Position numbers and translations under genes: made by a program
Notes under the pieces: generated by a model
What the model saw: only the letters and a program-made list of their open reading frames with translations
What the model was told of the DNA's origin: nothing
The model's database searches: none
IMG/VR virus record: IMGVR_UViG_3300009168_000041
Coordinates: 1-64,000 of that record
DNA length: 64,000 nt
Direction: 5' to 3' (one strand)
Source of the DNA: a virus
Part shown: piece after piece, positions 19,206 to 42,799 of the stretch
Position numbering within the stretch: position 1 is the stretch's first letter
Layout: every line of letters begins with the position of its first letter

Positions 19206-21513
19206 GGCCCACCGCGCCCGCCGCGAGGCCGTGGGGCGCAGCCTAGTTTTATCCAAGGCATCATCTTCATCGTCGCCCATGTCCGTCATGACTGGCGGAT
19301 ATCCAAGCTTCATGGAATTGGCCTATGGTACGACGCTGGCCCGCCAGTCTGAGCAGTTCAGGCACTACTGCGGCTGGTCGTACACCGCAATCAATTGCAT
19401 CGCCCGCCGTCTTGCTGGCCAGAAGGTGAAGATGGGGCGCAAAGCCGAGGCGGCGGCCGAGATATCCACCTGGGCGTGGGACCGGCCGCCCGGCCGCAAG
19501 ATCCCCTTCCATACGCGACTCAAGGCCCCGGAATTCGTCAAGTCGATTGATTCGGACATCGAGGTAATCGAGACGCACCCGCTCTTAGACGCGGTGCAAA
19601 ATCCCAACCCAATCATGACATCATGGGACTTGCTGTTCTTCACCGTGGCCGGGCTGGAAATCACGGGGTTGGCCTATTGGTGGATTACCGATGACACTGG
19701 AGACGGTGAGGACCGGATGCAAATCTGGCCTCTGCCAAGCGATTGGGTGACGCCCAAGCACGGCAAGACGCTTTTCGAGAGCTACGTCATTCAGCCGCCC
19801 GGCCAGTTTGGGGTCAAGGTGGAAGTGGACGCTTCTGAGATTGTGCGGTTTCCGCTCATCGACCCCGCCAACCCACTTGGTACCGTTTCCCCGATGCAAG
19901 CGCAGGCCCCGGCCATAGCGGTTGACGAGGAAATTCAGGTTGCCCAGCATCGGGCGATGAAGAATGATGTGATTCCTGGCTTGGTATTTCGAGTTGGCAG
20001 GTTGCCATCAATGACCGGCATCGGCGAAGGGCCGCGGCCTGTACTTACAACAGAACAACGCCGCGAGCTTTATGACACCATTCGTGTGACTCACCAGGGG
20101 GTCGTCAATTTCCGAATGCCGCTCATCATCGACGGCATGATTGAGGGTGTAGATAGAGTTACCTACGCCCCGGCGGAACTCGACTTCCTCAACTCGGGCA
20201 ACGCGGTCAAGAGTCGCATTTTTCAGTCCTATGGCGTCAACCCGATCGTGGCCGGCGAGATTGCCGGTGTGAATCGGGCCCAAGCCGCCGTGGCTGATAG
20301 CATCTTCCTGCGCGGCGTCTGCAATCCGATCGCCGAAATGATCGGTCAAAAAATGACGCAGCACATCGGCAAGAAGGACGTTTTCTTCTGGCTGGAGATG
20401 CTAGAGGCAGACGATCCGGAATTGAAGTTGCGGCAAATGACAGAGGCAAGCCGCTTGAAGACGGAAAGCGGCAAAGGATTGGTGACGAAAAACGAGTGGC
20501 GGGCACAAATCCTTGGTCTGCCGCCAACGGACGATGGGGAAGAGACGGTAAGCAGTTCACCAGCCCCGCCGCCCAATCCGTTCGGAGTCGGTTTCCCTGG
20601 TCAGACGCCCGGCGGGCCGCCGAAGCTGGGGGAGAAGCCGGGGGATGAGGATGAAGACGGCAAGCCGCGTGGTAAGCTGCTGCCGCCGAAACCAGGTGGG
20701 GAAGGGAGCGGGGCAGGGAATGATACTGGTAACATTGAGGCAGCAGAAGAAAGCAGTAAGTCTGCTATCCGTCAAGTGAAGTTCGACTCCAATCAGCCGC
20801 GCGAACCGGCGGGAAGCCCCGAGGGCGGACAGTGGGCGGGAGGCGAAGGTAGTGGTGGTGGAAGTGGCGGCAGAATGGGTGATACATCGCGTTCATCGCG
20901 CCCGTTTGCTGATCCTTCTATCAAACGGGAATTTAATCCCAAAACTCTGCCGATTAATGCGCTGACATCAAGTACATCCAAGATATCTGATGATTCTAAG
21001 GAAGCGTTGAAGTGGTGGACTAGCGCAGATACCCAGTTCTCAAAAATAAACCGGGCGTTGTGGTCCGACAAGCCGATGCCGGCGAAACTCCAGTCTCTCC
21101 ATAATCGCATCGTCAAAGGTATTGAAGAGGCAAGACCGGTTGCTGAGGGTACCGTTGCCTATCGCGGGATTACACTGAAATCGACACGAGCTAGGGATGA
21201 ATTGGTCAAACAATTCGAGAAGTCGGCGGCCAGTGGTGAGCCTGTCACTATGAAAGGGTTTACTGCGACTTCGCTTGACCCAGAGCTATCTCGCAGTCTC
21301 TACGCCGGTGAACGATGGAAGGCTGTAATGTTTGAAATACGCCCAAAGAATGGCGTGTATCTATCACCTATTAGTACGGTGCCGAGCGAACAGGAATTGC
21401 TGATGAAACCCGGTGCCAAGTTTCGTGTAGCTGGGGTTCAGAAAAGCGTACTTGTCGGTTGGCAGACAGTTCAAGGCACGGGCCATATCCTCATTCAACT
21501 GGAGGAGGTGTAA
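19177..21513 (+). CDS. HK97-type portal protein fused to C-terminal ADP-ribosyltransferase (VIP2/Alt-like, R-S-ExE class)
   Basis: Portal motifs HPLL...NPNP.MT, GLAYWWI, IWPLP, SPM, NEWR...GLPP; then INRAL, AYRG, GFTATS, SEQELL. Confidence 0.85.
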   Translation: MASVLTASIKAHRARREAVGRSLVLSKASSSSSPMSVMTGGYPSFMELAYGTTLARQSEQFRHYCGWSYTAINCIARRLAGQKVKMGRKAEAAAEISTWAWDRPPGRKIPFHTRLKAPEFVKSIDSDIEVIETHPLLDAVQNPNPIMTSWDLLFFTVAGLEITGLAYWWITDDTGDGEDRMQIWPLPSDWVTPKHGKTLFESYVIQPPGQFGVKVEVDASEIVRFPLIDPANPLGTVSPMQAQAPAIAVDEEIQVAQHRAMKNDVIPGLVFRVGRLPSMTGIGEGPRPVLTTEQRRELYDTIRVTHQGVVNFRMPLIIDGMIEGVDRVTYAPAELDFLNSGNAVKSRIFQSYGVNPIVAGEIAGVNRAQAAVADSIFLRGVCNPIAEMIGQKMTQHIGKKDVFFWLEMLEADDPELKLRQMTEASRLKTESGKGLVTKNEWRAQILGLPPTDDGEETVSSSPAPPPNPFGVGFPGQTPGGPPKLGEKPGDEDEDGKPRGKLLPPKPGGEGSGAGNDTGNIEAAEESSKSAIRQVKFDSNQPREPAGSPEGGQWAGGEGSGGGSGGRMGDTSRSSRPFADPSIKREFNPKTLPINALTSSTSKISDDSKEALKWWTSADTQFSKINRALWSDKPMPAKLQSLHNRIVKGIEEARPVAEGTVAYRGITLKSTRARDELVKQFEKSAASGEPVTMKGFTATSLDPELSRSLYAGERWKAVMFEIRPKNGVYLSPISTVPSEQELLMKPGAKFRVAGVQKSVLVGWQTVQGTGHILIQLEEV

Positions 21514-21514
21514 C

Positions 21515-21670
21515 GTGAGTCGGTTCTCTGCTGTATTGGATGAGATTGTATTTGGCACTACGCCAGCAAGGGATATCATCGACGATGAAGAGGAAGAGGA
21601 AGAGGAGGATGATGAAGAGACGCATTCTCGCCCGCCCGCGAAGCCGCAACCGGAAGGTGCCGAGGGATGA
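21515..21670 (+). CDS. Small acidic protein, candidate ART inhibitor
   Basis: GGAGGAGG RBS, GTG start 1 nt after the portal-ART stop, poly-Glu/Asp. Confidence 0.5.
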   Translation: MSRFSAVLDEIVFGTTPARDIIDDEEEEEEEDDEETHSRPPAKPQPEGAEG

Positions 21671-21894
21671 CGCCGCAAACATTTTCTGTCTTTTCTATCT
21701 GGGGACCGACACCTTATACTCCCAACACGCTTCGGCAAGGCGAAGGGCCTGTGGTGTTTGGCGACGGAACAGTAGACGCCGAATGTGTGATAAAGTTTGC
21801 GACGTTCTTAGCACCCACTTGGGAAGATGCTTGCAAAGTGTATGAGGTCTTCCGCGGAGAGATCGAGTGGATGCGAGCGCAGGCACAGACGTGA
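21667..21894 (+). CDS. Hypothetical protein
   Basis: ATGA overlap with the previous stop. Confidence 0.4.
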   Translation: MTPQTFSVFSIWGPTPYTPNTLRQGEGPVVFGDGTVDAECVIKFATFLAPTWEDACKVYEVFRGEIEWMRAQAQT

Positions 21895-21911
21895 ATGCAG
21901 GCGTGAACGCA

Positions 21912-24215
21912 ATGTCTAATCGCGAATCTCTTATCGCCCGCAAGTCTTGGCTTCGCGACGCCTCGATTGCCCTCTGGACGAAAGCTGAACGCGAGGCGGC
22001 ACGCGAAGTCTACGATGCGGCATATCTCTTTTGTCAGGCCCAGCGGCGGGCCGTGGCGGCTGATTTGCGGCGGATTCACGACGACAGCCCCGGTACGAAC
22101 ACGGCGGACAAGATTGAGGCGGACGTTCTGAAAACAAAGGATTGGGAGAAGCTGCTGCGGGATACGGTTGGCGTGGCGGTGGTCAAGACGGTGGCGAGGG
22201 GGTATTTGGCGGCGAAGGCGGCGCAGGTGGGGCGGCGCAGGAGGCAGGCGGCGGGGGTGTGGGGGAAGGGTGGTCCTGGCTCGGGGAATTTCGGCCATGC
22301 TGGCAGGCCAGGAATGGTAGGTGGAAGCGCGGCGGGGGAAGGTGGTGGCACTTCTAGAGTGTCGTGGCCACATGGAGGAAGAAAGCCCGATACGGTATAT
22401 CGGATTCAACCGCAAGGTGCCAATTTACACGGTCAACAGTCCGAGACAAGCAACGGCGAGGTTATTGGTGGAGTTTTTGTATTTGATAACCTCAATGAAC
22501 TAGCTGCGATTGACTGGATGAATGAACCAGACGTTGAGCTTGTCGAAATTAGGATTGAACCCGGCGATACATTCCGAACATTTGACCAAGAGGGTACGGG
22601 ACTTCGGCAAGGCCGTGGTCAGGTTGTAGGTCGTATTCGCTTTGATGATGTTCGTGCTGCACGTGAATGGGCTGTCGAGGAACAAAGTAAAGACAACAAA
22701 AAGACCAGTAGAGTTGATGCCCGTAAATTTACTAAGCAAGGTTGGTCCGATGCCCCGCTCACCGACGCCGAGGAAGCCGAAATTCTCTCATTCGAGCTTC
22801 CGCCGTCCGTCACCCGCCGCGTCTTCGCTCACTCTGCCGAAATCATATCCAAGCCTTATTGGAAGGACGTGACGCAAACGGGGCTGGAATCCATGAAGTG
22901 GAGCATCCAGGAGGGCATCGAAGAGGGTAAGACGCTCAAGCAGATCGCCGATGACATCCAGGGGGACATTGACTCGGATAAAGTGCGTGCGAGGCGGATT
23001 GCAACGACGGAAGTTTCGGGGGCTTACGCCGCAGGCGCGCTTACCGAAGCCGAGGAAGCGGAAGCCGCGGGCGTGCGGATTGCGAAAACATGGATTACCA
23101 TCGGCGACGACAAGGTGCGTCCGCAGCACGAGGATATGGACGGTACGGTTGTGGAGGGTGCGGCCGGACTATTCAACGTCGATGGGGTCGAGGTGCCGTA
23201 TCCGGCGCACCCGGACTTGCCGGCAGCTAGTCGATGTAATTGTCGTTGCACGATGAGCATAGAGCCGATCCTTGAGGGTGAGACGGCCGCCCAGCATATC
23301 GAGGCGTACAAGGCGATAAGAGAGGCGGCAAGATGGCTCAAGTTCGACCCGGACCAGCCGCGTGACCCCGACGGCAAGTGGTCTGGCGGCGGTTCGTATC
23401 ACGCCGTCACTCGCGACAGCAACGGCACAGTTCGGCACAGCGATGGCAAAGTGAGCAAGGAACTCACGGCACGAGCGAAGGCGCTGCGTCTGCCGCCCGC
23501 GTGGACGGACTTGAAAATGAGCGCCGATCCCAAAAACGCTTTACAGGCCACGGGCAAAGACGCCAAGAGCCGCACCCAGTATGTCTATTCGGCGGCGCAT
23601 TCCGAGCGGGCGGCTGCCGAAAAGTTTGGGCGTGTGAAGCGGCTTATTAAAGAGCTTCCGGCCATCGACAAAAGCATTCGCCGCGATGCATCCACGAAAG
23701 ACGAGGCGGCCGTATTGCTTCTCATGCGGAAGACAGGGATTCGCATTGGCTCGGAACGGGATACGAAAGCTGAGAAGCAAGCTTATGGGGCATCGACATT
23801 GCGGGCAGAGCACGTCAAGATCGCCGGCGACAAGGTAACGCTCGCATTCACTGGCAAGAAGGGTGTTGATATCCGGCTGGAAGTCAAAGACAAGGAGCTT
23901 GTCGAGGTGCTCAGAAGTCGAATGGAAAAAGGCGGGAAGCTGTTTGACACTGACGACACGCGGGTAAGGGATTACATGCACTCAATCGACGGCAAATTCA
24001 AACCAAAAGACTTACGGACGATCAAGGCGGCGGACGTAGCACTGCAAACAATGAAGGGCATGTCGTCCCCGAAGAGCCAGGCGGAATTCAAAAAGTTCCG
24101 CAACGCGATAGGCGATGCAGTGGCGGCCAAGCTAGGAAACACGCGGGCCGTGGCGTTGGCAAGCTATGTGCCGCCCGAGGTCTTTTCACCGTGGAAGGCG
24201 AAGCTGGGGATATGA
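21912..24215 (+). CDS. Phage MuF minor head protein with an internal cargo domain and C-terminal DNA topoisomerase IB
   Basis: RARRIATTE, KTW...DDKVRPQH, NCRC (MuF); LPPAW, GKDAKSRTQY, GIRIG, GKKG, KDLRT, LGNT, SYV (complete TopIB catalytic set). Confidence 0.88.
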   Translation: MSNRESLIARKSWLRDASIALWTKAEREAAREVYDAAYLFCQAQRRAVAADLRRIHDDSPGTNTADKIEADVLKTKDWEKLLRDTVGVAVVKTVARGYLAAKAAQVGRRRRQAAGVWGKGGPGSGNFGHAGRPGMVGGSAAGEGGGTSRVSWPHGGRKPDTVYRIQPQGANLHGQQSETSNGEVIGGVFVFDNLNELAAIDWMNEPDVELVEIRIEPGDTFRTFDQEGTGLRQGRGQVVGRIRFDDVRAAREWAVEEQSKDNKKTSRVDARKFTKQGWSDAPLTDAEEAEILSFELPPSVTRRVFAHSAEIISKPYWKDVTQTGLESMKWSIQEGIEEGKTLKQIADDIQGDIDSDKVRARRIATTEVSGAYAAGALTEAEEAEAAGVRIAKTWITIGDDKVRPQHEDMDGTVVEGAAGLFNVDGVEVPYPAHPDLPAASRCNCRCTMSIEPILEGETAAQHIEAYKAIREAARWLKFDPDQPRDPDGKWSGGGSYHAVTRDSNGTVRHSDGKVSKELTARAKALRLPPAWTDLKMSADPKNALQATGKDAKSRTQYVYSAAHSERAAAEKFGRVKRLIKELPAIDKSIRRDASTKDEAAVLLLMRKTGIRIGSERDTKAEKQAYGASTLRAEHVKIAGDKVTLAFTGKKGVDIRLEVKDKELVEVLRSRMEKGGKLFDTDDTRVRDYMHSIDGKFKPKDLRTIKAADVALQTMKGMSSPKSQAEFKKFRNAIGDAVAAKLGNTRAVALASYVPPEVFSPWKAKLGI
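22734..22765 (+). repeat. 32-bp direct repeat copy 1 (encodes KQGWSDAPLT)
   Basis: 31/32 identical to 25178-25209. Confidence 0.9.
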
Positions 24216-25243
24216 GCGCACAAGAAGACTACAGCAGACTCGAAGCGTGGGCGGATTCCGTCCATTATGTCGGCGTCGGTGGCGGCAACCAGTGGGATGA
24301 CGATGAGACGCTTGCGGCGGAATGGTGGGATACGCCGGAGACGCAAGATGATCCCGACGATGAGGAGGATGAGGATAATGTTTCATCAGATACGTCGAAG
24401 CGATTTGCGGAAGTGTTAGGCAAGGGCGGCCCGGGGAGCGGCAACTTTGGACACGCGGGGCGGCCGGGAGAAGTCGGGGGGAGTGGGCCGGGGGGCGCGA
24501 CGGGCGAGGTGAACCCGAAGGTCGAGGCGTGGGCGCGGCAGCGGTTCGGCAGTGAGGAGAAGGCGCAGGCATTTACCAAATGGTTTGGACAGAGCAAAGT
24601 AGTCGATGAGAATGGCGAGCCGCTGGTCGTGTATCATGGGAATCGAGGTGAATCGTTCAATGAATTCGATGCGAGTAAGAATCGTGAACCACCGATGCCG
24701 AATGGATTGAAGCCGTGGTTTTTTGCCAATGATGAGACTATAGCTGGCAGTTATGGGCCAAATATCCAGTCATTCTATCTGCGAATGGATAATGTATTAG
24801 ACGTAACAGAAGTTCCTGTCTGGAATAAGGAGACTGCTGAACGAGATTCAATGTTTGTCCGTTCAGGGGACTACCGCAGGTTTCCTTATTCTTTACGAAA
24901 GGAACTGGAACAAGATGGAGTAAAGGGCGAAACTGATACGCAGCATATTCTTGATTGGATGGACAGTAAAGGCATCGCCTATGCTAAATGGAATTATGCC
25001 AACGCAATGAAGAAGTTTGGTACAAAGTATGATGGGATCATTGCCCGTAACACCCTAGATACATTCGGATCCGAGACACGGGGAGATATCTATATTGCCT
25101 TTAGACCCACTCAAATCAAGTCCACCAACAACCGTGGCACGTTCTCGCCGGACTCATCCGACATCCGCAAGTCCATCAAGCAAGGTTGGTCCGACGCCCC
25201 GCTCACCGAAGGCATCGAAAGCAAGGAGGCGGATACGGAATGA
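24212..25243 (+). CDS. Acidic N-module plus ART-PolyVal-like ADP-ribosyltransferase cassette
   Basis: AFTKWFGQSKVVDENGEPLVVYHG...FD, YDGII, IAFRPTQIKS..NRGTF motifs typical of the polyvalent-protein ART domain. Confidence 0.75.
   Translation: MSAQEDYSRLEAWADSVHYVGVGGGNQWDDDETLAAEWWDTPETQDDPDDEEDEDNVSSDTSKRFAEVLGKGGPGSGNFGHAGRPGEVGGSGPGGATGEVNPKVEAWARQRFGSEEKAQAFTKWFGQSKVVDENGEPLVVYHGNRGESFNEFDASKNREPPMPNGLKPWFFANDETIAGSYGPNIQSFYLRMDNVLDVTEVPVWNKETAERDSMFVRSGDYRRFPYSLRKELEQDGVKGETDTQHILDWMDSKGIAYAKWNYANAMKKFGTKYDGIIARNTLDTFGSETRGDIYIAFRPTQIKSTNNRGTFSPDSSDIRKSIKQGWSDAPLTEGIESKEADTE
25178..25209 (+). repeat. 32-bp direct repeat copy 2 (encodes KQGWSDAPLT)
   Basis: 31/32 identical to 22734-22765. 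Confidence 0.9.
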
Positions 25244-25992
25244 CCGGCTGTTTCGTCCGCGCCCTCTGGGGTGACGAGTACACGCAAGCCCACCCGGGCA
25301 CGCGCCCGCGCCCGTGCAAGACCCGCATGGATGTGCGGGCCGCTCTCCAGTGGCCGAACCGCCTTACCTCTCCCGTGGCCGTCTACAGCTTCGGCGTGGC
25401 CAACCAGCGATTCCTGGAGAAGTTGGGCGTGCGGTCGGTCATGCTGTCTGACGAGTACCTCCCTGGCTGCTTCAGCGGCGACGACCGGAACGTCAAAAAG
25501 CACGGGCAAGTCCACTGGGGCGTCAACCCGTTCAAGTACAAGATTGACGCGATTGCCGACGCCCTGAAAACCTATCCCGATGTCGTCTGGCTCGACTGGG
25601 ACGTGGAACCCGTCGCTCCCGAGCCGCCGGACCTATGGGAAAAACTAGCATGGGACCAGCCGCTCCAGGCGGCCGTGCGAACGCTCCGGGCCCGCTCGGC
25701 GAAGTGGCGGACGGGTGACGAGGCGGGAATGCGGGTTCAGCATCATGGGGCGTTCGTGTACATACGTGGACGCGAAACCGTGCGGCGGCTGCAAACCCTC
25801 GTGGCCGAACGCCCAACGGAGACGGAGGAGCACGCCATCGGCCGGCTGGTTGACGAGATGATGGGCGGCCGGTGGCTCGGGCTGGACACGTATCGGGAAA
25901 TGGGGTTCGTGCCATATTGCTATGACGTAGGGGACAAGCACAATAAGGTGTGGGACGCGGAAGAGGTGGTGTTTATGAACAGGGGAAGATAA
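25240..25992 (+). CDS. Putative GT-A glycosyltransferase, paralog 1
   Basis: CFVRALWGD N-terminal motif; VVWLDWDV DxD motif. Confidence 0.6.
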   Translation: MTGCFVRALWGDEYTQAHPGTRPRPCKTRMDVRAALQWPNRLTSPVAVYSFGVANQRFLEKLGVRSVMLSDEYLPGCFSGDDRNVKKHGQVHWGVNPFKYKIDAIADALKTYPDVVWLDWDVEPVAPEPPDLWEKLAWDQPLQAAVRTLRARSAKWRTGDEAGMRVQHHGAFVYIRGRETVRRLQTLVAERPTETEEHAIGRLVDEMMGGRWLGLDTYREMGFVPYCYDVGDKHNKVWDAEEVVFMNRGR

Positions 25993-26010
25993 CAAACGTG
26001 AAGGAATATC

Positions 26011-27051
26011 ATGCGAATTGTAGTAACGGGCGCGGTGGGCTTCATTGGCTCTTGGTTGTGCGAGCGGCTGATTGCCGATGAGCGTGATGTCGTCGGCGTG
26101 GACGATTTCAGCACGGGGCGGCACGAGAATGTCGGCTGCCTATTGAACGGCGACAGTCGTATGAGGATGTACTGTCATGACGCGGGCGACAAACTAATGA
26201 TGGAGCCAATTATCGCCGAGGCTGATTTTGTGTTCCATTTGGCTGCTACCGTAGGCGTCTTTCAGTACATGCAGGCAAGTGTCACAACCGTCCGCAATAA
26301 CGTCAACACCAGCGATACGGTGTTCGGGCTCTGCAATCGCTACCGCGTGCCGGTGCTCTTTACGAGCACGTCGGAAGTCTACGGCAAGTCGGCGGACGTG
26401 CCGTTCCGCGAGGATGCCGATATCGTCTTAGGGCCGTCCGAGCGGGCGCGGTGGGGCTACGCCGCAAGCAAGCTGACGGATGAGTTTTTGGCACTGGCCT
26501 ATCATCGGCAGTATGGCTTGCCAGTGCGAATCGTGCGGCTGTTCAATTGCGTTGGGCCGCGCCAGACGGGGCGATACGGTATGGTCGTGCCGCGGTTTGT
26601 CAGCCAGGCCAAAGCGGGGCAGCCGATGACGGTGTTCGGCGACGGCAACCAGACGCGGTGTTTTTGTTCTGTCCACGATATCGTGGATGGACTGATTGCC
26701 ATTGCTGGTTGCGGGGCCGCGGTGGGGCGGGTGGTGAATCTCGGAACTGACGAGGAAGTGTCGATAAACGAATTGGCGGAAGAGGTGGCGTTCTACGTCA
26801 ACCCGCACGGCGGCATTGTGCATGTTTCGTACTCAGAAGCTTACGGGGAAGGGTTCGAGGATATGACGCGGCGGGTGCCGGACATCACGCGGGCAAGGGA
26901 ACTCATCGGTTGGAAGCCGAGGCTATCGCTGGCGGATATTCTCGTAGAGATGGCAAACGAAAGGAATACATCATGCAAGGGGGCTGCTTCGTCCGCTGTC
27001 TCTTCGGCGACGCCACCATCCCCAACTTCGCTTCCGTGCTCAACGAAGTAA
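26011..27051 (+). CDS. NAD-dependent NDP-sugar epimerase/decarboxylase (extended SDR)
   Basis: TGAVGFIG, STSEVYG, YAASK, GDGNQTRCF. Confidence 0.9.
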   Translation: MRIVVTGAVGFIGSWLCERLIADERDVVGVDDFSTGRHENVGCLLNGDSRMRMYCHDAGDKLMMEPIIAEADFVFHLAATVGVFQYMQASVTTVRNNVNTSDTVFGLCNRYRVPVLFTSTSEVYGKSADVPFREDADIVLGPSERARWGYAASKLTDEFLALAYHRQYGLPVRIVRLFNCVGPRQTGRYGMVVPRFVSQAKAGQPMTVFGDGNQTRCFCSVHDIVDGLIAIAGCGAAVGRVVNLGTDEEVSINELAEEVAFYVNPHGGIVHVSYSEAYGEGFEDMTRRVPDITRARELIGWKPRLSLADILVEMANERNTSCKGAASSAVSSATPPSPTSLPCSTK

Positions 27052-27758
27052 AATGGTGCGTCGAGCGGCCCCACCAGCCCGAACCGACGCTCTGGTATGT
27101 CTTCGGCGAAGCCAACCGGGATGTCCTTCGCGATTGTGGTTGCCACCCCATCATGCTCTCGCCGGAACCGTTCTGCTACTTCGGCCACGACGACGGCAGC
27201 GGCATTAGCCACGACGGTCTGGTTCGCGGCGGCTCTAGCCTATGGCGGCACAAGTATCCGGCCATTGCGGACGCCTTGCACGTCTACCCGGCGGCTGTGT
27301 GGCTTGACTTCGATACGTTCCCATCGGGGGTCGTGCCGGCCGACTTCTGGACTCGGCTGGCGGCCGGGGCCGCATTCCAAGGCACCCTCGGGCAAATGGG
27401 CATGAAGCGGGCGAAGTGGCGAACGTGCGATGAGCGAAAGATACCGCTCGGGGCAATGCTCTACTTTCGTGGCCGCGAGTCCATCCAAGCGATGTTGGAC
27501 TTGTACGCCGAACATCCCGGCGAGTGGGACATGGTTGTGCTTGCCCGCCTGGCTGACCAGATGATGGGCGGTTGGAAGGGGCCGGAAGAGTACGTCAAGC
27601 AAGGATTTCAATTGTACTGCCACATACTGCTGCGGCGGCTGCGGTGGCAAGTCTACGCACCGGAGCAGCGGCTATTCGTGACGTTGACGGAGCATAAGCA
27701 GACGGTTCGCAAGGCGATAAAGGAATTGCAGGGTGGAATTGCGGACGGCGGAAATTGA
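26973..27758 (+). CDS. Putative GT-A glycosyltransferase, paralog 2
   Basis: CFVRCLFGD; VWLDFD; MMGGW. Confidence 0.6.
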   Translation: MQGGCFVRCLFGDATIPNFASVLNEVKWCVERPHQPEPTLWYVFGEANRDVLRDCGCHPIMLSPEPFCYFGHDDGSGISHDGLVRGGSSLWRHKYPAIADALHVYPAAVWLDFDTFPSGVVPADFWTRLAAGAAFQGTLGQMGMKRAKWRTCDERKIPLGAMLYFRGRESIQAMLDLYAEHPGEWDMVVLARLADQMMGGWKGPEEYVKQGFQLYCHILLRRLRWQVYAPEQRLFVTLTEHKQTVRKAIKELQGGIADGGN

Positions 27759-27963
27759 AGCGGGAGCGGCCAAGGCGGCACCGGAACCCCTGGCTGATAA
27801 CTTGGCTGATAACCCGATGGATAACCCGACGGCTAACCTGACGGCCTTGGTAGGCAACCCACGCTGGGCGCGGGTGCATCGTCGGATATGGGACACGCCA
27901 GGCAGCATTCTGGATATCGGCTGCGCCGGGTGGCAGTGGAGCCGGCAATTCATCGGACGCCGC
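27733..27963 (+). pseudogene. 5' fragment of a SAM-dependent methyltransferase, cut by the IS
   Basis: ILDIGCAG motif I; reading frame runs into the left IR at 27964. Confidence 0.55.
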
Positions 27964-28369
27964 GGTAGTGGTACAGTTTGAGGGGACTGGCAGAAAAAAC
28001 GCCAGGAAATAACCTAGGCCGCCAGTGTAACCAGCGGCCTAGGTTGGAAGTGTGCGCGACCCAGATGGCATAATGTGCGGGTTTTCACCGAGCCTGTAGT
28101 ATTTCCCCGAACGAGACCATCGGGTAATTGATATCTTTCCTTGGTGACGGGCTCAGATCCCAAGGCGCGCCTCCGTCAAAAACTCCGCCAAGCTACACCT
28201 TCCTTTCTCGGCCATGCGGCCGATCTGCTCATCATAGCTATTCGCCGGGTGAAAGCAACTCTTAGCCCCACCCCCCACAGTCTGAGACAAATGGCCGGGG
28301 GGAGATGGTCAGGAATTGTTACGTAAGTTTTCAGGCCGAAGAAAATAATCTTTGGACTGACTTGAGTGG

Positions 28370-28398
28370 TTGACAATCAAATTCGACATTGGTAAACT
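28370..28398 (+). promoter_or_regulatory. Sigma70-like promoter inside the IS
   Basis: TTGACA-17 bp-TAAACT. Confidence 0.55.
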
Positions 28399-28431
28399 TC
28401 TCTCATGGTGCTAGATGCGAGGAGTGGACGT

Positions 28432-29317: not shown

Positions 29318-29323
29318 AGCGGA

Positions 29324-32717: not shown

Positions 32718-32739
32718 CACGGGAAGGACCAGGTAATAT

Positions 32740-33321: not shown

Positions 33322-33327
33322 GGCTTT

Positions 33328-34065: not shown

Positions 34066-34068
34066 GGC

Positions 34069-34851: not shown

Positions 34852-34866
34852 TAACGGAATCGCCCC

Positions 34867-35457
34867 ATGTTTCCACCCTGGATGCACCTAAATCCCGCAT
34901 ACTCGAAATACAAAATCGGCCAATGGTCCTACGGGAAGCCGACGATTAACGACTATGGTATGCCCGCGTCGGCCGTGACTATCGGGAAGTTTTGCTCGAT
35001 TGGCGGCGGGACACTTTTCATTCGCGGCCAGCACAGTATGGATATTGTCAGTACAGGTGGCGTCGCACTGTATCTGACTTCCGACAGAGAGTTGCGATCT
35101 AAGCTTGTCGGCCTTGACCCGCGCGGGGATATCACCGTCGGAAACGACGTGTGGATTGGGTACAACGTCATCCTCATGCCCAACGTAACCATCGGCGACG
35201 GGGCAGTCATTGGTGCATCGGCCGTCGTGACTCGGGACATCCCGCCATACGCCGTTGCGGTTGGCGTGCCGGCCCGCGTCCACCACATTCGGTTCCCGCC
35301 AGACGTAGTTGAGGCGTTGCTTCGCATTCGCTGGTGGGACTGGCCAGACGATGTGGTGCGGGCGCGAATTGCCGATATCCAGTCGAACGACGTGGCTGGG
35401 TTTGTTGCTAGGTACGATCCGCTCAAGGCGGCGGCGTCAGCAAAGGGAACAGCATGA
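34867..35457 (+). CDS. CatB-related hexapeptide-repeat O-acetyltransferase
   Basis: [34 protein letters not shown]. Confidence 0.88.
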
Positions 35458-35460
35458 GCA

Positions 35461-36216
35461 ATGATGCGAGTAACAAGTATGAGAAACGTATTTGTCCGCG
35501 GCCTGTGGGGCGACGAAACGACGCAACGCCGGCCGAAGCGGCATGGGCATTCCCTGGCTGACGAGATTAAGGAAACCCGCGACTGGCAGTACCGCGAATC
35601 GCCGCTTCTGGTTTGCAGTTTCGGGCGGCCGAACCACGATACCCTGGCTGAACTAGGCATCCCGTCCACGATGCTCTTCTCGGACGGGGTTATCAATTAC
35701 TCGGGGGCCGCCTCCCGCGACTCTACTGGGCGACGCGGTTGGGTCAACTATGGGTCGGATATCTCCCGGCAGAAATTCGAGTGCATTGCCGCCGCGTTAG
35801 AGTCGAACGACGCGGCCCTCTGGATTGACTGGGATGTTCGGCTTGTCGAGCCGCTGCCGGAAGATTTTTGGGGCCGGATGAATTCCGGTCCGCCCATGCA
35901 GGCACCGCTTGGGTTCGGATACAAAAACAAGCAGTGCTTATGGCGAAAGATTCAACCACGAATCTTGCACCACACATGGTTTCTGTACGTCCGGGGGATG
36001 GCGATAGCGCGGCGGCTTTTGGCTGTTGCGGCGGAATACCCCCTGGAATACGACGAACGGATTGCGGCCCGCGTGTTCGATGAGTTGTCCGGCGGCTGGA
36101 AAGGCACAGAAACGTACATAAGGGAGGGCTACCAGCCGTACTGTGCGGAGCATATCACGGGCGATATGTTTGGGTACAAGGCGGAGCAGCTGGTTTTTCA
36201 ATGTCAAGGGAAGTAG
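35461..36216 (+). CDS. Putative GT-A glycosyltransferase, paralog 6
   Basis: FVRGLWGD; LWIDWDV; SGGW. Confidence 0.6.
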   Translation: MMRVTSMRNVFVRGLWGDETTQRRPKRHGHSLADEIKETRDWQYRESPLLVCSFGRPNHDTLAELGIPSTMLFSDGVINYSGAASRDSTGRRGWVNYGSDISRQKFECIAAALESNDAALWIDWDVRLVEPLPEDFWGRMNSGPPMQAPLGFGYKNKQCLWRKIQPRILHHTWFLYVRGMAIARRLLAVAAEYPLEYDERIAARVFDELSGGWKGTETYIREGYQPYCAEHITGDMFGYKAEQLVFQCQGK

Positions 36217-36234
36217 GGGGCGGTACGAAGGCCC

Positions 36235-36972
36235 ATGAATCTGAGTATTGAACTCAACGTCACACTCGCCTGCAACGCCCGCTGCCGCTGCTGCGACCGC
36301 CTATGCGACAAGTTCCCAGAACGGACTGAGCACATGGAAGTCTGCCAGGTGGAAAGATTCCTGACTGAGGCTCGGCTGGCCGGCGGCGTAAGCAAGGTTC
36401 GCGTCTTGGGCGGCGAGCCGACGCTTCATCCACAGATAGACGCAATCATGCGGCTTCTGGTCGATGCCATTCACGACGGAACGGTCGGGGCTGTCGAGGT
36501 GAACACCAATACGATATCGCCTACTTGGAAGGCCCACCGCGACGCCTGCCTTGATCCCAAAGTGCGATGGGACCGCTCGCCGCCGAATCGCAAACACCAC
36601 CTGCCTTTTTTGTGGGCCCCGAAAGACTTGGGGTTCGCGACCACCGGGCCGTGCCGCCACCCGGTTCAGTGTGGGTTCAGCCTGGATTCGCTCGGTTGGT
36701 TGCCGTGCAGCCCGGCGATTGCCATTACCCGCCTGTTTTTCGGCGGCCGGCATTACCGCCAGGCCATGCCGGACGGAACGGCGTGGGGGTGCGAAGACCT
36801 ATGCCCGCTGTGTATTTACTCGATGCCGCGCGGGTGGCGAATCAGGAACCGGCGAAAGCTTCGCGATTTTACGGCGGCGATGAAAGAGCCAACGCGGTCC
36901 TGGGCAGACGCTCTGAAAGAGGCGACACAGAAGGCACCTGCGGAAGCATCGCAAGGGAACCCCAATGGGTAA
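36235..36972 (+). CDS. Radical SAM protein
   Basis: CNARCRCC (CxxxCxxC), GGEPTLHP, Cys-rich C-terminus. Confidence 0.88.
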   Translation: MNLSIELNVTLACNARCRCCDRLCDKFPERTEHMEVCQVERFLTEARLAGGVSKVRVLGGEPTLHPQIDAIMRLLVDAIHDGTVGAVEVNTNTISPTWKAHRDACLDPKVRWDRSPPNRKHHLPFLWAPKDLGFATTGPCRHPVQCGFSLDSLGWLPCSPAIAITRLFFGGRHYRQAMPDGTAWGCEDLCPLCIYSMPRGWRIRNRRKLRDFTAAMKEPTRSWADALKEATQKAPAEASQGNPNG

Positions 36973-37513
36973 CGTCTTCTCAAAGGGCTCCCACCTCCCC
37001 ATCCTTGCCTATGCCGTCCGCAAAACGCAAGGAACGGTCATAGAGTGCGGGGTCGGCTACTTCTCGACACCGTTCCTCCACTATGTTTGCTGTCCCAACA
37101 GGCCGGTTGTGAGCCTAGAGCCGGATGAAAAATGGGCCAATCTGTTCACTGGGTTCGCGTGCGACGGCCACAGAATCGAACGGGTCGCCTCTACCGTGGT
37201 CGGATGGATTGATGCCCTAGCGGCGGCCTGCAATGCGTCACACATCGGAGTTGCTTTGATAGACCAAGATAACGACACGTTTGCTAACAGGGCGGCGACT
37301 GCCGGGTACCTCATCGACCGGGCTGATATCGTCGTGATTCACGATATGAAAATAGACAGCGGACATCATCGTCGGATACCAAAGCGCGTGCGGCGGGCGA
37401 AATTCGTTCGCTTCTTTCCTGACCACGGGGACAAGTATTGCTTCGGCACGATTGCGGCCAGCCAGCGAATCGACGTGCATAAGTGGCCCGAACTGACGTT
37501 TGAAAATGCGTGA
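36965..37513 (+). CDS. Putative SAM-dependent methyltransferase
   Basis: VIECGVGYFST motif I; ALID; VIHD. Confidence 0.6.
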   Translation: MGNVFSKGSHLPILAYAVRKTQGTVIECGVGYFSTPFLHYVCCPNRPVVSLEPDEKWANLFTGFACDGHRIERVASTVVGWIDALAAACNASHIGVALIDQDNDTFANRAATAGYLIDRADIVVIHDMKIDSGHHRRIPKRVRRAKFVRFFPDHGDKYCFGTIAASQRIDVHKWPELTFENA

Positions 37514-37628: not shown

Positions 37629-37637
37629 ACGCGAAAG

Positions 37638-37889: not shown

Positions 37890-37946
37890 AAGCCCGGCGT
37901 CTGCGTTTGTGCCTGGTGCATGAATGCGGACGCCGGGCTTTTTTCG
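37890..37946 (+). terminator. Rho-independent terminator upstream of head genes
   Basis: 18-bp stem AAGCCCGGCGTCTGCGTT / AATGCGGACGCCGGGCTT followed by a T-run. Confidence 0.75.
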
Positions 37947-37964
37947 TTTTCGGGGAGCTTGGAA

Positions 37965-39293
37965 ATGGCGGACGCCGACTACGTAGAAGTCCATATCCAG
38001 TTCCCGCCCGCCGACACCGACGCCGTTAAGAATCGCCACATCAAAGCATGGGATGTGAACGCGGCCGAGGCGGGCACTGCTGGCCAGCCGTTCGTCAATA
38101 AGACGCTCGCCAACACCGTCAACTTCTACTCGTTCTCGTGCTTGAGTGGTGCCCGCATTCGCGTCGGCCAGTATGACGTAATGAACGGCGGTCGCGTGAC
38201 GGAGATGCACACGATCGAGTTCGGTGCCCATGCGGGGACGTGGGTGGAAACCGAATGGCTGTGGGTGAGCGACATCCAGGACCTCAGCGAATCGTCAAGC
38301 AGCACGTCCAGCACTTCCACCGCCGAGGTGAGCCGGTCGTCATCTTCCTCGACATCATCCAGTTCCAAGTCTACGGAATCGCTCAGCAGCTTCTCGTCGT
38401 CCACGGCTTCCACTGCATCCGTCACTTCGGAAAGCAGCCTGAGCACGACATCGACAAGCACGCTTGTTTCCACGTCTTCCACGAGCAGCAGCACGACATC
38501 GAGTTCCTCGTGGTCTTCGCCCAGCGTATCTACGCTATCGTCGCAAAGTGCGGCCAGCGAATCGTCGGCCAGCGAATCCAGCGAATCGTCAACCAGTTCG
38601 GCTAGCACGTCTTCTAGCAGCACGGCCGAAGCTTCCTGGTCGAGTTCCTCGACGACGAGCGGTTCTAGCAGCAGCACGTCAAGCGTTTCCACGACTTCTG
38701 GTAGCTCGTCTTCTAGCTCGTCCACGGTGGTGGCGTCCGGCTCGTCAAGTTCTACGTCAAGCAGCACCTCGTCTAGCACGTCCAGTAGCACGACGGAAAG
38801 CATTACCTCGGCTTCTTCGTTGAGCTACTCGACGGCAACTTCGTCTAGCACATCTTCGTCTAGCACGAGTGCATCTTCGCTGTCGAGCGCGTCTAGTGTT
38901 TCAGGTTCGTCGTCAAGCTCGAATAGCTCGTCTTCAACGGTTGTGGCTTCGTGGTCGTCAAGCAGCACATCAAGCAGTTCGTCGAAGAGTGAATCGTCGT
39001 CTTCGTCGAAGAGCGTATCGTCGTCTTCTTCCAATTCGGAAAGCTCAACCAGCACCGCCGGTGCTTCGTGGTCGTCTTCATCGTCGTCTAGCACGGCATC
39101 GGTTTCGAGTTCGTCCAGCAAATCTGTTTCGTCTTCCTCCACCTCAAGTTCGTCTAGCGCGTCGGTTTCGTCGTCGTCTTCCAAGTCGGTATCTTCTTCC
39201 TCGGCCTCTAGTTCCTCGACCGTCGAAATTTCGATGTCCAGTTCGTCCTCTACGTCTTCTTCCAGCACCAGTAGTTCGGAGAGCCAGGGATGA
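37965..39293 (+). CDS. Protein with ~105-aa beta domain and ~330-aa poly-Ser/Thr tail
   Basis: GGGAG RBS; Ser tract ~38286-39283; ATGA overlap with the prohead protease. Confidence 0.75.
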   Translation: MADADYVEVHIQFPPADTDAVKNRHIKAWDVNAAEAGTAGQPFVNKTLANTVNFYSFSCLSGARIRVGQYDVMNGGRVTEMHTIEFGAHAGTWVETEWLWVSDIQDLSESSSSTSSTSTAEVSRSSSSSTSSSSKSTESLSSFSSSTASTASVTSESSLSTTSTSTLVSTSSTSSSTTSSSSWSSPSVSTLSSQSAASESSASESSESSTSSASTSSSSTAEASWSSSSTTSGSSSSTSSVSTTSGSSSSSSSTVVASGSSSSTSSSTSSSTSSSTTESITSASSLSYSTATSSSTSSSSTSASSLSSASSVSGSSSSSNSSSSTVVASWSSSSTSSSSSKSESSSSSKSVSSSSSNSESSTSTAGASWSSSSSSSTASVSSSSSKSVSSSSTSSSSSASVSSSSSKSVSSSSASSSSTVEISMSSSSSTSSSSTSSSESQG

Positions 39294-41110
39294 GCCCAGA
39301 CGAATTGAACCTGAAGCTCGCCGATATTGTCCGCGGACGCACGGATCGCATGTCGCTCTATGGCTCGGGTATCCGGCTGGCCAGTGACTACGTTCGCGGG
39401 GTTCTGGACGCGGCTGGCAGCGACGGGGCGGTAGCGTTTCCGGACGCCGCTGGGATGGTAAAGGAAGCGGAAAACCGGCTCGTGTATCGCAATGACGATA
39501 TGGCTTACGAGCCGCCCATGACGAGCATGGGGGCCATCGCCGGGTACTGCAAAAGCATCGGGGTCGATACGCCGCCGCGGTGCCTCATGGTATTCGAGAA
39601 TATCGTCACTACCAGCAAGGAAGACAGGGACGGCGACATTCTTCGTAGCGAAGGGGCGATGGTTGACCCGCAAATGCCGCTGCTCTGGCACCACATGCTG
39701 CCGGCAATCGTTGGCAAGATGCTTTCGGTGCGGGAACAGAACAGCAACCACGTCCGCGTGGCGTCGGCCATCATGGAATCGCCGCTCGGGAACGACGTGG
39801 CCAACCTAATCGAGTTTGGGGCGTTGCGAATCAGCCACGGGTTCCGGCCTCTGGACTTCCGGCCGCGTGAAAAGGGACTGCGAAATACGCAAGTGCCACG
39901 AGGATACGACATCCGTTCATACGAAATGCTTGAGGAAAGCGTGGTTTCGGTGCCAAGCAACGTGGGGGGCGTTATCACCGCGTGGAGCCGCGGGAAGCTT
40001 TGCACCCCAATGGTCAAGGCGTGGGCAAAGTCGCTCAACGAATCGCGGCCAGACAAGGTGTATGCGGTGGGTGTCGCGATTGGTGGTGCGGCCAGCGTGG
40101 TTGGAATGTCCGCGCCTGACGCCAACATGCAATCGACAGACCAGGATGCCTACACGCTTGGCACGGTCACGATCCCGGTGAATCTGGAGATCAAAATGAG
40201 CCGCAAAAACGCAGACCCCACAGAACCCGACGGCCAGAAGCCGACGCCCACCGATGAAGACGTTCGCCTCGGGGCCGACGCCAAGCGGCAGAAGGAATCG
40301 GGCGACAACCCGCCGTCGTGGGCCGTGGATGAGGCGTTGTGGGAGCGTGCGAAGAAAGCGGCCGATAAGTCATACGACGAATCGGACGAGGCGTACTGGC
40401 CGGTGGTGGTCACCATCTACCGAAACATGGGCGGAACAATCCAGGGCGACGCCCAGAAGTCTGTTGAACCCGAACCCAAGCCGGCGGCCAAGCCGGAGGA
40501 GAAAGTCATGGACCCCGAAGTCAAAACCGCGCTCTCCTCCAAAGCGATGGGCACTGAACCGGATGAGGAGGGAGATGGCGAAGACACCGCCGAAGCCAAG
40601 TGCCCTGAGTGCGGCGAAACGGTAACACCCGATGCCGATGGCAAGTGCCCTGAGTGTGGGGCTGCGATGAAAAAGCCGGAAAGCAAGAGTGCCGAAAGCG
40701 ACGCGGAAAAGTCCCCGGCACCCCTGGCTGACAAAGCAGGCCGCGTACTCTCCACCGCCAACGAGGCCGCTATTCGCACCGCCGCTGCCGCCCTCCAAGC
40801 GGTTCTCGACCAGGTAGGCGAGCCCGAGAAACAGAAGCCCGGCGAGCCGCCGGCCACCGACAAGCCGGACGAACAGCCGCCACGCGAAGGGCCGCCGGTA
40901 GAACTCAACCTCCCTGACTCTTCGCTTTCGCTTCAAGCGGCGTGCCAGACGGTGGTAACAAAACTATTCGACTTGGACCCCGCAGACACGTCGGCCGAAG
41001 ACGTGAAGATCATGCGGCGAACCAACGAAGCACTCGGCTTGGCCTTGGAACAGGTCAATAGGGCGAAACGGCGGCGGGCCGTTGAGAAGGTATTTTCCCG
41101 TAAGCGGTAG
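39290..41110 (+). CDS. HK97-family prohead protease with long C-terminal extension
   Basis: DRDGDIL, PLLWHH, ISHGF, EESVVSVPSN; extension with LWERAK..YRNMGG, double CPECG and KAGRVLS motifs. Confidence 0.85.
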   Translation: MSPDELNLKLADIVRGRTDRMSLYGSGIRLASDYVRGVLDAAGSDGAVAFPDAAGMVKEAENRLVYRNDDMAYEPPMTSMGAIAGYCKSIGVDTPPRCLMVFENIVTTSKEDRDGDILRSEGAMVDPQMPLLWHHMLPAIVGKMLSVREQNSNHVRVASAIMESPLGNDVANLIEFGALRISHGFRPLDFRPREKGLRNTQVPRGYDIRSYEMLEESVVSVPSNVGGVITAWSRGKLCTPMVKAWAKSLNESRPDKVYAVGVAIGGAASVVGMSAPDANMQSTDQDAYTLGTVTIPVNLEIKMSRKNADPTEPDGQKPTPTDEDVRLGADAKRQKESGDNPPSWAVDEALWERAKKAADKSYDESDEAYWPVVVTIYRNMGGTIQGDAQKSVEPEPKPAAKPEEKVMDPEVKTALSSKAMGTEPDEEGDGEDTAEAKCPECGETVTPDADGKCPECGAAMKKPESKSAESDAEKSPAPLADKAGRVLSTANEAAIRTAAAALQAVLDQVGEPEKQKPGEPPATDKPDEQPPREGPPVELNLPDSSLSLQAACQTVVTKLFDLDPADTSAEDVKIMRRTNEALGLALEQVNRAKRRRAVEKVFSRKR

Positions 41111-41170
41111 TGCCGCCGTTGGCACCACCGAACACCAGCCTCGTGTAACCGTGTAACAAGGATCGAAACT

Positions 41171-42799
41171 ATGAATCTCACGACCAACCTGAAGGGCTGG
41201 CTTGCGGAGAACTGCCAAGTTCCGGCAACGGCCAGCGACGAAGAGTTCAAGAAGGCCGCCAGCCTGGCGATCTTCGATGACAAGCTTTCCGCTACCAAAC
41301 TCGCCGAACTCACCGAGGAAGGCGGGCCGGACGCGGCCGACGTGATTGGGCAGGCACTCGCCAAGGCCCTGGCCCCGATTACCCAGAAAATGGCTTCCCT
41401 GGAAGAGCGGCAGTCGCAACTCCAGAACGCCGGGGCCCTCGGCTCCGCCCTGGAATCGGCCATTACCAACGTCAAGCCGACGGTCAGCGGCGAGCCCGAC
41501 AAGGTGCCGTCCAGCACCCGGGCGGCGCAACTGTTCGGGGCCGCCGACCCGCAAGTCCGCGTCAAGTCGCCGATGGAGCGGTACAGCCATACCAAGTCGA
41601 TGCTGACGTACCCCGACCGGGACAAGCACGGCCGCCCGCACCCGAAGGCCGGGCTGCCCATTTCCATGCCGAACGCCTTCAACAGTTCTTTCGAGACCAT
41701 CGCCCAGGATGAGACGGCGATTATCGGCGCGTTCGTCAAGTGGTCGGCGAACATGGGCGGCAAGGGCGTTTGCCCGCACCCGCTGCTTCGCATGACGGAG
41801 CACGACCAGCAACTGATGGAATACGCGATGCACGAGATGCCCTGGACGGGCTACCTCAACGCCTCGGGCCGAAACGAGATCGAGTTGACCGGAGAGAAGC
41901 TGACCGACTTCCAGCGGAAGACGCTGCTTGACGATTCCACGTCCGGCGGCCTGGAAGCCGTGCCCGTTGTCGTGGACCTCGCCCTGATTACCACGCCGGT
42001 TCTCTTCGGCGAACTGTTTCCCCTGGTTGAGGTGGTGCCGATTCCTCGGGGCCGCCGGATCGAGGGGGCCAGCATCGGCAACATCTCGTGGACCTCGGGC
42101 ACCGCCGAGGGCACGAGCATCACGCCGTTCAACACGGCGTCGATGATCGCGGCGTTCGACAACACCGTCTATCCCGTGGTTGCGGCCATCGAAGTCGGAA
42201 ACGACTTCCAAGAGGATTCGCCGTTCTCTATCGGCCAGACGATCATCAGCAAGGCCGGCGAGAAGCACATGGAATGGCTTGACAACCAGATCGCCAACGG
42301 CGACGGCACGACTGAGCCGCAAGGCATTTTCAACGCCAGCGGCACGACCGACATCGGCAACCCGTCCGGCGGGGCCGGCGCGGCGGCCACGATCACCGAC
42401 TACGAGAACCTGCTGTTTGGGATCTCGAAGGCGTATCGCAACACCCCGCAAGACCGGGCCCGCACCGTGTACATCGCCAACGACACGTCTTACAAGCGTG
42501 CCCGCGCGATCTACGTCGGGGCTGCCGACGCCCGGCGTCTGTTCGGAACGGACTACCAGAGCTACATGCTCGGGGACGTGCCGTTCAAGGTTCAGAACGA
42601 CATCGACAACGCCTACGCGGCGTGCTGCAATCTCCGCTACTACCGCATGTATCGCCGGCAAGGCGTACAGGTGGTGACGGAGACCGGCGGCCGGACGCTG
42701 CAGCTCCAGAATCTCACCCTCATCGTCATGCGGGCTCGCTGGGCTGGAAAGCTGACGCTGGGCGGGGCCTGCGCGTATTCCGACAACTGGCAGGCGTAA
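41171..42799 (+). CDS. Major capsid protein (HK97 fold) with N-terminal scaffold domain
   Basis: Follows the protease; SGGLEAVP and NGDGTTEPQGI motifs; strong C/G-ending codon bias. Confidence 0.88.
   Translation: MNLTTNLKGWLAENCQVPATASDEEFKKAASLAIFDDKLSATKLAELTEEGGPDAADVIGQALAKALAPITQKMASLEERQSQLQNAGALGSALESAITNVKPTVSGEPDKVPSSTRAAQLFGAADPQVRVKSPMERYSHTKSMLTYPDRDKHGRPHPKAGLPISMPNAFNSSFETIAQDETAIIGAFVKWSANMGGKGVCPHPLLRMTEHDQQLMEYAMHEMPWTGYLNASGRNEIELTGEKLTDFQRKTLLDDSTSGGLEAVPVVVDLALITTPVLFGELFPLVEVVPIPRGRRIEGASIGNISWTSGTAEGTSITPFNTASMIAAFDNTVYPVVAAIEVGNDFQEDSPFSIGQTIISKAGEKHMEWLDNQIANGDGTTEPQGIFNASGTTDIGNPSGGAGAAATITDYENLLFGISKAYRNTPQDRARTVYIANDTSYKRARAIYVGAADARRLFGTDYQSYMLGDVPFKVQNDIDNAYAACCNLRYYRMYRRQGVQVVTETGGRTLQLQNLTLIVMRARWAGKLTLGGACAYSDNWQA

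Follow-up and report, generated by a model that had tools for sequence, protein, structure and literature searches.

Candidate head-protease sites before conserved leaders of predicted capsid cargo in an uncultured phage

How would a phage release enzymes that are encoded as parts of its own head proteins? This question is raised by the head module of an uncultured tailed phage (IMG/VR record IMGVR_UViG_3300009168_000041, 87.6 kb, of which the first 64 kb form the window of this analysis). In this module (19177-42799, + strand), the portal protein, a MuF polyprotein and the product of the next open reading frame (ORF3) carry effector-like domains behind short conserved peptides, hereafter leaders, which comprise about 13-20 residues and follow one of two consensus sequences, GGxGSGNFGHAGRPGxVGGS (GG leader) or FDxxQPRxxxGxW (FD leader). 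An earlier reading of the same DNA, the original prediction, had stated that every cargo starts right after a Lys and with a short Gly-rich leader, and had proposed that the prohead protease excises effectors at these points and so exposes leaders that may keep them in the capsid or send them out with the DNA. Based on sequence comparison, we consider it fairly probable that the portal, MuF and ORF3 proteins are precursors of capsid cargo, which would be cut at the leader junctions by an S78-like head maturation protease. Lys would be one flavour of a code that is matched to the protease, and this phage appears to fit the K pattern.

All the motifs listed in the original prediction were recovered in frame, exactly where it had placed them. 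The genes concerned were the following (aa, amino acids):

19177..21513, + strand: portal protein, 778 aa; Pfam Phage_portal at aa 127-443 (5e-32), NCBIfam portal_HK97 weak
C-terminal extension of the portal protein: linker, FD leader and ADP-ribosyltransferase (ART); Pfam ADPrib_exo_Tox at aa 600-757 (1.8e-11)
21867..24215, + strand: MuF polyprotein, 782 aa; Phage_Mu_F (1.6e-16), Topoisom_I (5.9e-23), Top1B_N_bact (2.2e-9), TIGR01641 phageSPP1_gp7
24191..25243, + strand: ORF3, 350 aa; Pfam ART-PolyVal at aa 139-318 (4.2e-19)
39290..41110, + strand: head maturation protease with a scaffold-like tail, 606 aa; borderline Pfam Peptidase_S78
41171..42799, + strand: major capsid protein (MCP) of the HK97 family, 542 aa; Pfam Phage_capsid

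The junctions and the segments that they border were located as follows:

20779..20835, + strand: junction 1 (portal), VK (Lys codon 20779-20781) and then, from 20782, the long FD leader FDSNQPREPAGSPEGGQW (FDSNQPR...GQW), ahead of the ADP-ribosyltransferase
22266..22328, + strand: junction 2 (MuF), GK and then, from 22269, the GG leader GGPGSGNFGHAGRPGMVGGS, ahead of the cassette
22329..22733, + strand: cassette cargo of MuF; no Pfam or PHROG match, weak ESM Atlas matches (0.88)
22734..22763, + strand: right cassette border in MuF, TK and then QGWSDAPLT, directly before the MuF domain
23340..23381, + strand: junction 3 (MuF), LK and then, from 23343, the FD leader FDPDQPRDPDGKW, ahead of the type IB topoisomerase (TopIB)
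Leader from 24425, + strand: junction in ORF3, GK and then the GG leader, ahead of ART-PolyVal
K at 25178, + strand: right border in ORF3, IK and then QGWSDAPLT
40733-40753, + strand: protease tail site, DK (K482) and then AGRVLS
41918-41935, + strand: candidate MCP maturation site, QRK and then TLLDD (K250|T251, K codon 41918-41920)

The complete 87.6-kb genome contained four leaders in total, and all eight candidate borders of this phage, MCP K250 included, ended in K. Given the rates of K before leaders elsewhere (26% for GG and 29% for FD), the probability of finding K before four out of four leaders is ~0.006, assuming independent sites. The Lys part of the original statement thus stood for all four leaders, whereas its Gly-rich part applied to the GG type only; the FD leader consists of a Pro/Arg/Trp motif, with a Gly-rich stretch coming after it. 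The MuF polyprotein consisted of a helical N-terminal part, the GG leader, the cassette (about 155 aa), the MuF domain (aa 343-463), the FD leader and a bacterial-type topoisomerase IB (aa 531-763). ORF3 consisted of an acidic N-terminal propeptide of 78 aa, K, the GG leader (24425-24484), ART-PolyVal, K-QGWSDAPLT (25178-25207) and a short tail. The string GK|GGPGSGNFGHAGRPG was common to MuF (leader from 22269) and ORF3 (leader from 24425). We detected no close relatives of the MuF polyprotein in the related-locus search.

Both leader types were found in many other viruses. The GG leader, searched in viral contigs with the back-translated pattern GSGNFGHAGRPG, was present in 108 viral loci with 149 matches (up to 6 per locus), and the FD leader was present in at least 120 viral loci (pattern FDxxQPRDxxGxW). 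The leader of junction 2 agreed with the consensus of 100 aligned GG leaders, and that of junction 3 fitted the FD pattern. All 133 distinct contexts of the GG matches had G-G-x before and x-x-G-G-S after the match, neither of which was included in the pattern. Among 1.84 billion protein representatives, the GG profile (100 leaders) matched 5,647 with E<=1e-3, of which 157 reached E<=1e-30, and single polyproteins with a length of at least about 2,000 aa had up to 9-10 copies. By contrast with the viral loci, the pattern occurred in only 3 prokaryotic loci (one genome each of 185,579 species), all of them on metagenome-assembled contigs. Both leaders are widespread modules, and the GG leader is almost confined to viral contigs. 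None of the Pfam, NCBIfam or PHROGs models covered either leader, and a full-text literature search for the motif strings found no description of them. When both types were aligned with MAFFT, GH-A-G-RPG-x-V-GG of the GG leader was placed over x-x-Q-PRD-x-x-G-R-W of the FD leader, thin evidence which hints that the two may be variants of one older motif.

We also examined the segments that flank the leaders (150 downstream and 150 upstream). The downstream segments were effector-like, as the original prediction had assumed for the cargo: they comprised four ART-type Pfam families (12, 2, 2 and 1 segments), Zeta-toxin kinases, GNAT acetyltransferases and TopIB, and further PI3/4-kinase-like, CdiA-C, ParB-like nuclease and ATLF-like domains. 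The upstream segments contained portal families (21), MuF (7), DUF2213 (4), S78 protease (2) or, in tandem polyproteins, another cargo domain; portal, MuF and protease were therefore seen as leader carriers in many phages, also in line with the original prediction.

Nine genes, all preceded by a good ribosome-binding site, encoded the leader straight after the start codon (M-GG..., M-V-GG... and M-A-G-FDPNQPRD), and many other leader genes had a propeptide of only 10-50 residues. As the leader natively begins genes, a free N-terminal leader would be a natural state, and cutting at the junctions would recreate it. An internal Shine-Dalgarno sequence (GGAGG in the Gly-Gly codons) was rejected as the cause of the conserved leader start, given that it was present in 13% of the leaders only and was followed by no start codon.

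We then focused on the residue directly before the leader (position -1). Before GG leaders, this residue was L in 46, K in 34, D in 12, N in 12, A in 12 and E in 6 of 133 cases (L 35%, K 26%); before FD leaders it was K in 38, G in 23, A in 21, D in 11, N in 10 and R in 9 of 130 cases (K 29%). The residue was specific to the phage: contig L010 had K in 9/9, L040 had N in 9/9, L080 had D in 5/5 and L024 had E in 5/5 (context I/L/V/A-x-E), while 13 copies of [RK]-x-[LA] preceded leaders in L054. Lys as a general code, in the sense of the original prediction, was therefore not retained, other phages using D, N, E or [RK]-x-[LA] and following other protease families. Pairs of GG leaders from the same contig shared the -1 residue in 73% of cases (279/382), compared with 20% in shuffles (z=22), and FD pairs shared it in 47% (z=6). 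The result was replicated in 150 polyproteins of an independent library, in which 77% shared the -1 residue versus 27% expected.

The variety of -1 residues bears on the idea that the leader is a self-cleaving element, which would cut the bond before itself with no head protease involved. Asn-Gly and Asp-Gly are chemically labile bonds, and these are what the N and D flavours would produce; moreover, the leader does not vary between phages whose head proteases differ. The K, E and L flavours are not labile, though, a universal self-cleaving peptide would not require a phage-specific and protease-matched -1 residue, and the FD and GG leaders share no catalytic-looking residues. We consider self-cleavage very improbable.

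The within-contig signal was restricted to the boundary. The excess of identity within contigs was 0.53 at -1, neither the variable positions of the leader nor -2 to -4 exceeded about 0.2, and the background level was reached by -5/-6. All synonymous codons were in use at -1, therefore the constraint acts on the amino acid. A constraint on one residue that peaks at the boundary and fades over ~4 residues has the shape expected of a P4-P1 protease site. The same data bear on a second explanation, in which the leaders would be recombination or linker joints for cassette swaps, comparable to VENN or the borders of Rhs cores, with a functionless -1 residue inherited through duplication or gene conversion. 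The cargo is indeed highly modular and shuffled behind identical leaders, and the variable leader positions were also somewhat alike within contigs (at +2, 0.56 versus 0.34 expected). In the window, moreover, the right border KQGWSDAPLT was conserved at the DNA level, as a direct repeat between the 22734 region and 25165-25209 (84% identity over 45 nt). This motif was absent from 120 other leader-bearing ORFs and was seen in this phage alone, and its borders may reflect a recent DNA-level duplication of the right flank of the cassette. Inheritance through such joints would not, however, account for an excess at -1 well above that of -2 to -4 or of the variable positions within the leader, for a constraint that acts on the protein, or for a flavour that tracks the protease family across unrelated contigs (see below), and we find this explanation quite unlikely.

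The link with the head-protease family came from a Pfam Peptidase_S78 search of 188 leader-bearing contigs, 38 of which were positive. K preceded 26/26 of the GG leaders in S78-positive contigs versus 28/184 elsewhere (Fisher 1.6e-18), and at the contig level it was found in 9/9 S78-positive contigs versus 13/71 others (2e-6); these Fisher tests overstate the significance, because the contigs are not phylogenetically independent. The FD leaders of S78-positive contigs had K at -1 in 13/40 cases, and K or R lay at most 3 residues upstream in 38/40, compared with 68/112 elsewhere (p=1.6e-5), typically in the form [KR]-(A/D/E)-(G)-FD. The P1 Lys, whose conservation among phages with HK97-type proteases the original prediction had made decisive, was thus strictly kept for the GG leader and more loosely for the FD leader. 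DUF2213, whose proteins are named head maturation protease in PHROGs and to which the annotated head maturation protease of coliphage T1 (gp50) belongs, was detected in 20/50 non-K contigs and in 0/22 K-type contigs. Strong DUF2213 matches (E<=1e-35) were confined to D-type contigs, and the 16 contigs with weak matches had [RK]-x-[LA] (11), N (2) or other residues (3). No match to ClpP or T4-type S77 models was obtained in 44 leader contigs, although the S77 control also matched nothing and the S77 negative weighs little. Chance as the source of Lys before leaders was ruled out by the within-phage specificity, the co-variation with S78 and the replication.

The protease and capsid genes of the window lie about 13 kb beyond ORF3, with the protease gene ending at 41110 and the MCP gene starting at 41171, and the same gene order was observed in related loci. 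The protease comprised an S78-like domain (aa ~128-230), a zinc-ribbon linker, K482-AGRVLS and a tail of about 125 aa. It scored 20.9 bits against Pfam Peptidase_S78 (cut-off 21, E 4.3e-4), and E 0.0024 against TIGR01543, well below the cut-off of that model. Residues His135 and Ser182 were invariant in 26 homologs, and an hhalign comparison of the 26-sequence profile with HK97 gp4 placed them over H65 and S114, the catalytic residues of gp4, in a weak alignment of 115 columns (E 0.1). A PDB sequence search with the protease profile gave no match. K-x-GRVLSxxN was present in 25/25 protease relatives, 101-138 aa from the C-terminus, while the length upstream of it ranged from 148 to 927 residues; this would agree with a tail that is a conserved module, set off by Lys.

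The MCP has a scaffold (delta) domain of about 250 aa, and K250 was K in 101/102 homologs, within the block [EQ]-[IRV]-K-[ATS]-L-L-D-D-S-T-S-G-G and 8 residues ahead of the N-arm motif GG-L-E-A-P. HK97 gp5 is cut at K103/S104 (PMC10275583), a site at a similar distance from its G-S-L-I-Q-P motif. MAFFT misplaced the N-arm when the MCP was aligned with gp5, so that the two sites were compared by their distance from the GG/GS-L-x-x-P motif and by where the Pfam model starts.

Taken together with the leader data, these sites suggest the following course. A carrier (the portal, MuF or an N-terminal propeptide) would bring each precursor into the procapsid, where the MCP would be trimmed after K250 by the S78-like head maturation protease, which would probably cut its own tail as well, after K482. 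The same protease would cut after Lys at each leader junction, and each cargo would end up unattached inside the head, now beginning with the leader. The cargo set released in this way would consist of two ADP-ribosyltransferases, a type IB topoisomerase and one module with no family match. Predicted head-protease cleavage at the junctions is well supported by comparison; the later role of the exposed leader is speculative, and it could be a docking peptide, or an unfolded end by which the cargo is threaded out through the portal and tail.

Several observations weigh against cleavage by an S78-like protease. The S78 assignment is itself borderline (20.9 versus 21 bits, hhalign E=0.1, and no significant BLASTP match to HK97 gp4), and three complete K-type contigs had no recognisable protease; one further K-type contig had a divergent S78-like enzyme, matched only by the lineage profile of this phage. 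In S78-positive contigs, A, D, E or A-G often stood between the basic residue and the FD leader, therefore the exact bond that would be cleaved is uncertain. A cut at the K|QGW border of MuF (K289|Q290) would also split MuF itself. Part of the co-variation with the protease could stem from common descent of entire head modules, and a test within the lineage had no power, since only 2 leaders were present in the 80 loci from phages whose capsid proteins are related. In cultured phages, tblastn searches with the leaders and with leader plus cargo segments gave no match or matches to cargo domains only, where the low-complexity filter probably masks the GG leader. Finally, the polyvalent proteins N4 vRNAP and P1 DarB are packaged uncut (PMC5512222).

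Such full-length packaging also speaks for a third explanation, according to which the leader and the residues before it would form an uncut docking or packaging signal that binds the protease-scaffold or another head component, the fusions staying intact as polyvalent proteins. Junction residues that follow the protease-scaffold family would result from binding as readily as from cutting. A docking signal would fit less well with a constraint that peaks at -1 and decays over about 4 residues, which is typical of a P4-P1 site, and with a flavour that matches the known P1 of a characterised protease (K, HK97). Furthermore, the portal and MuF enter the head unaided and need no extra signal, and the genes that begin with a leader have no upstream site. 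Docking of intact fusions is, in our view, unlikely, and cleavage at the junctions is the reading that we keep in the comparisons below.

Processing of packaged proteins by a head protease is known in other phages. In T4 (gp21) and in SPN3US/phiKZ, ejection proteins are packaged with propeptides that the protease takes off at a fixed P1 residue, Glu (PMC5694885), and in phiKZ/SPN3US these proteins are cut at A/S/G-x-E by gp175/gp245 (PMC5694885). As in the course proposed here, enzymes that include an ADP-ribosyltransferase enter the procapsid as precursors in T4 (IPI-III and Alt, with gp21) and in phiKZ/SPN3US, and the head protease trims cargo and capsid protein at one fixed P1, the cargo being delivered with the DNA (PMC5694885), as is predicted for this phage. 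The systems differ in that P1 would be Lys with an S78-like protease here, versus Glu with an S77/S80 enzyme there, and in that the carriers here are the portal and MuF besides propeptides. In addition, the leader found across phages would stay on the cargo side of the cut, whereas T4 has no such leader. The likeness to T4-type cargo would be functional, not homologous.

The repertoire around the leaders (ART-PolyVal, ARTs, Zeta toxin, GNAT, nucleases, 2H phosphoesterase and InPase) is also that of polyvalent proteins (PMC5512222) and MuF polymorphic toxins (PMC5576092), which likewise have domains fused to MuF or portal, or in tandem, and are predicted to travel with the DNA. As the repertoire is the same as that of polyvalent proteins and of MuF- and portal-fused effectors, the layout of this window is a common one. 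According to Pfam, the portal with ADPrib_exo_Tox, MuF with TopIB and the adjacent ART-PolyVal gene represent effectors fused to structural domains, as in polyvalent proteins. An embedded zincin-like MPTase domain, which is common but not obligatory in the polyvalent family, was not detected by Pfam in portal, MuF or ORF3. Both papers propose processing mainly through embedded zincin metallopeptidases and refer to an assemblin-like peptidase in passing only (PMC5512222, PMC5576092). In a text search, neither paper was seen to refer to linkers, glycine-rich motifs or cleavage motifs at the junctions; as far as this search shows, they describe neither the leaders nor a P1 residue matched to the protease.

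The similarities with HK97 itself concern the head genes. In both phages, a P1 Lys (here the candidate K250) lies a few residues before the Gly-Ser/Gly-Gly start of the N-arm, and the protease gene is directly 5' of the capsid gene; the His and Ser of the protease described here line up with the catalytic pair of gp4 (weak hhalign, E 0.1). HK97 differs in that no cargo fusions or leaders are known from it, and gp4 lacks both the zinc-ribbon linker and the K-AGRVLS tail module of the 606-aa protease described here. Encapsulin cargo-loading peptides are short, Gly-rich and conserved, and they label enzymes of unrelated kinds as cargo for a shell with the HK97 fold. They are usually C-terminal and bind the shell directly. 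The leaders resemble them, compared by description only, as short Gly-rich conserved peptides on unrelated enzymes.

Beyond this phage, the leader (GGxGSGNFGHAGRPGxVGGS or FDPxQPRDxxGRW) may belong to a near-universal cargo-leader system of tailed phages, in which it would mark the N-terminus of each protein that is loaded into the capsid and injected, with the preceding residues as the site of the phage's own head protease; we regard this generalisation as plausible, though somewhat short of probable. If it is true, the specificity of head proteases could be read from genomes, with Lys for S78, Asp for T1-type DUF2213, [RK]-x-[LA] for weak (possibly divergent) DUF2213 and Asn or Glu for unidentified families, and cutting rules would become predictable for each head-protease family, including the poorly studied T1-type DUF2213. 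A peptide of 20 residues and the residue before it would identify head-packed, injected proteins (ADP-ribosyltransferases, kinases, topoisomerases, nucleases and anti-defence enzymes), so that the sequence by itself would be enough to list what proteins uncultured phages inject; the GG leader by itself would mark at least 5,647 protein clusters. The leader would also suggest itself as a portable tag with which foreign proteins might be loaded into capsids of the HK97 type. Finally, the T4/phiKZ model of protease-processed ejection proteins would be extended to HK97-like phages, and an alternative would be available to the metallopeptidase processing proposed for polyvalent proteins.

Some further features were recorded in the leader contigs. 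In L010 (K-type, S78-positive), a pre-site element of ~10 residues, (K)KS-x-h-x-x-L-F-x-K, abutted each GG leader of the - strand ORFs 2656, 4047, 6350 and 10328. At three gene starts this element read M...L-x-K-L-F-Q-K, the propeptides of L010 were alike (...L-F-Q-K|GG), and the element resembles a capsid-targeting propeptide of the T4 style. In the N-type contig L040 (G002), a 713-aa ORF (L230:274-2412) combined, by manual reading, a protease-like N-terminal domain with an acidic scaffold and a capsid protein. Candidate x-x-N|S sites (TVRN|S and IAKN|S) were found at its domain borders, echoing the x-x-N|GG of the nine leaders of this contig, and its N-terminal domain had no Pfam or PHROG match. 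In the protease of the window, the linker (40589-40659, + strand, aa ~434-457) contained a duplicated KCPECG unit that forms a CxxC-x16-CxxC zinc ribbon, which is unusual for a head protease.

The cargo genes of the window are separated from the protease by a block of about 12 kb within the head module (25186-37513, + strand). It encodes six paralogous proteins of 245-291 aa with an N-terminal CFVR.LWGD and a later L.DE(M/L).GG motif and with no Pfam match. Between these paralogs we found an NAD-dependent epimerase/dehydratase, a methyltransferase, a hexapeptide acyltransferase, a radical-SAM protein and an IS1-type transposase, and the block may be a sugar- or surface-modification island. Two proteins had very long Ser/Thr-rich low-complexity stretches: a 457-aa protein immediately 5' of the protease gene and overlapping it (37920-39293, + strand), and a 1,722-aa protein (13026-18194, + strand) with a BNR/sialidase-like domain and a right-handed beta-helix, which is probably a tail fibre or depolymerase. 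The Ser-rich DNA also gave long mirror ORFs rich in D/E/L on the opposite strand, which are probably not genes. Finally, one capsid homolog was labelled as a Gemmataceae bacterium and one ESM Atlas neighbour cluster was planctomycete; because of these two matches, the host is possibly a planctomycete.

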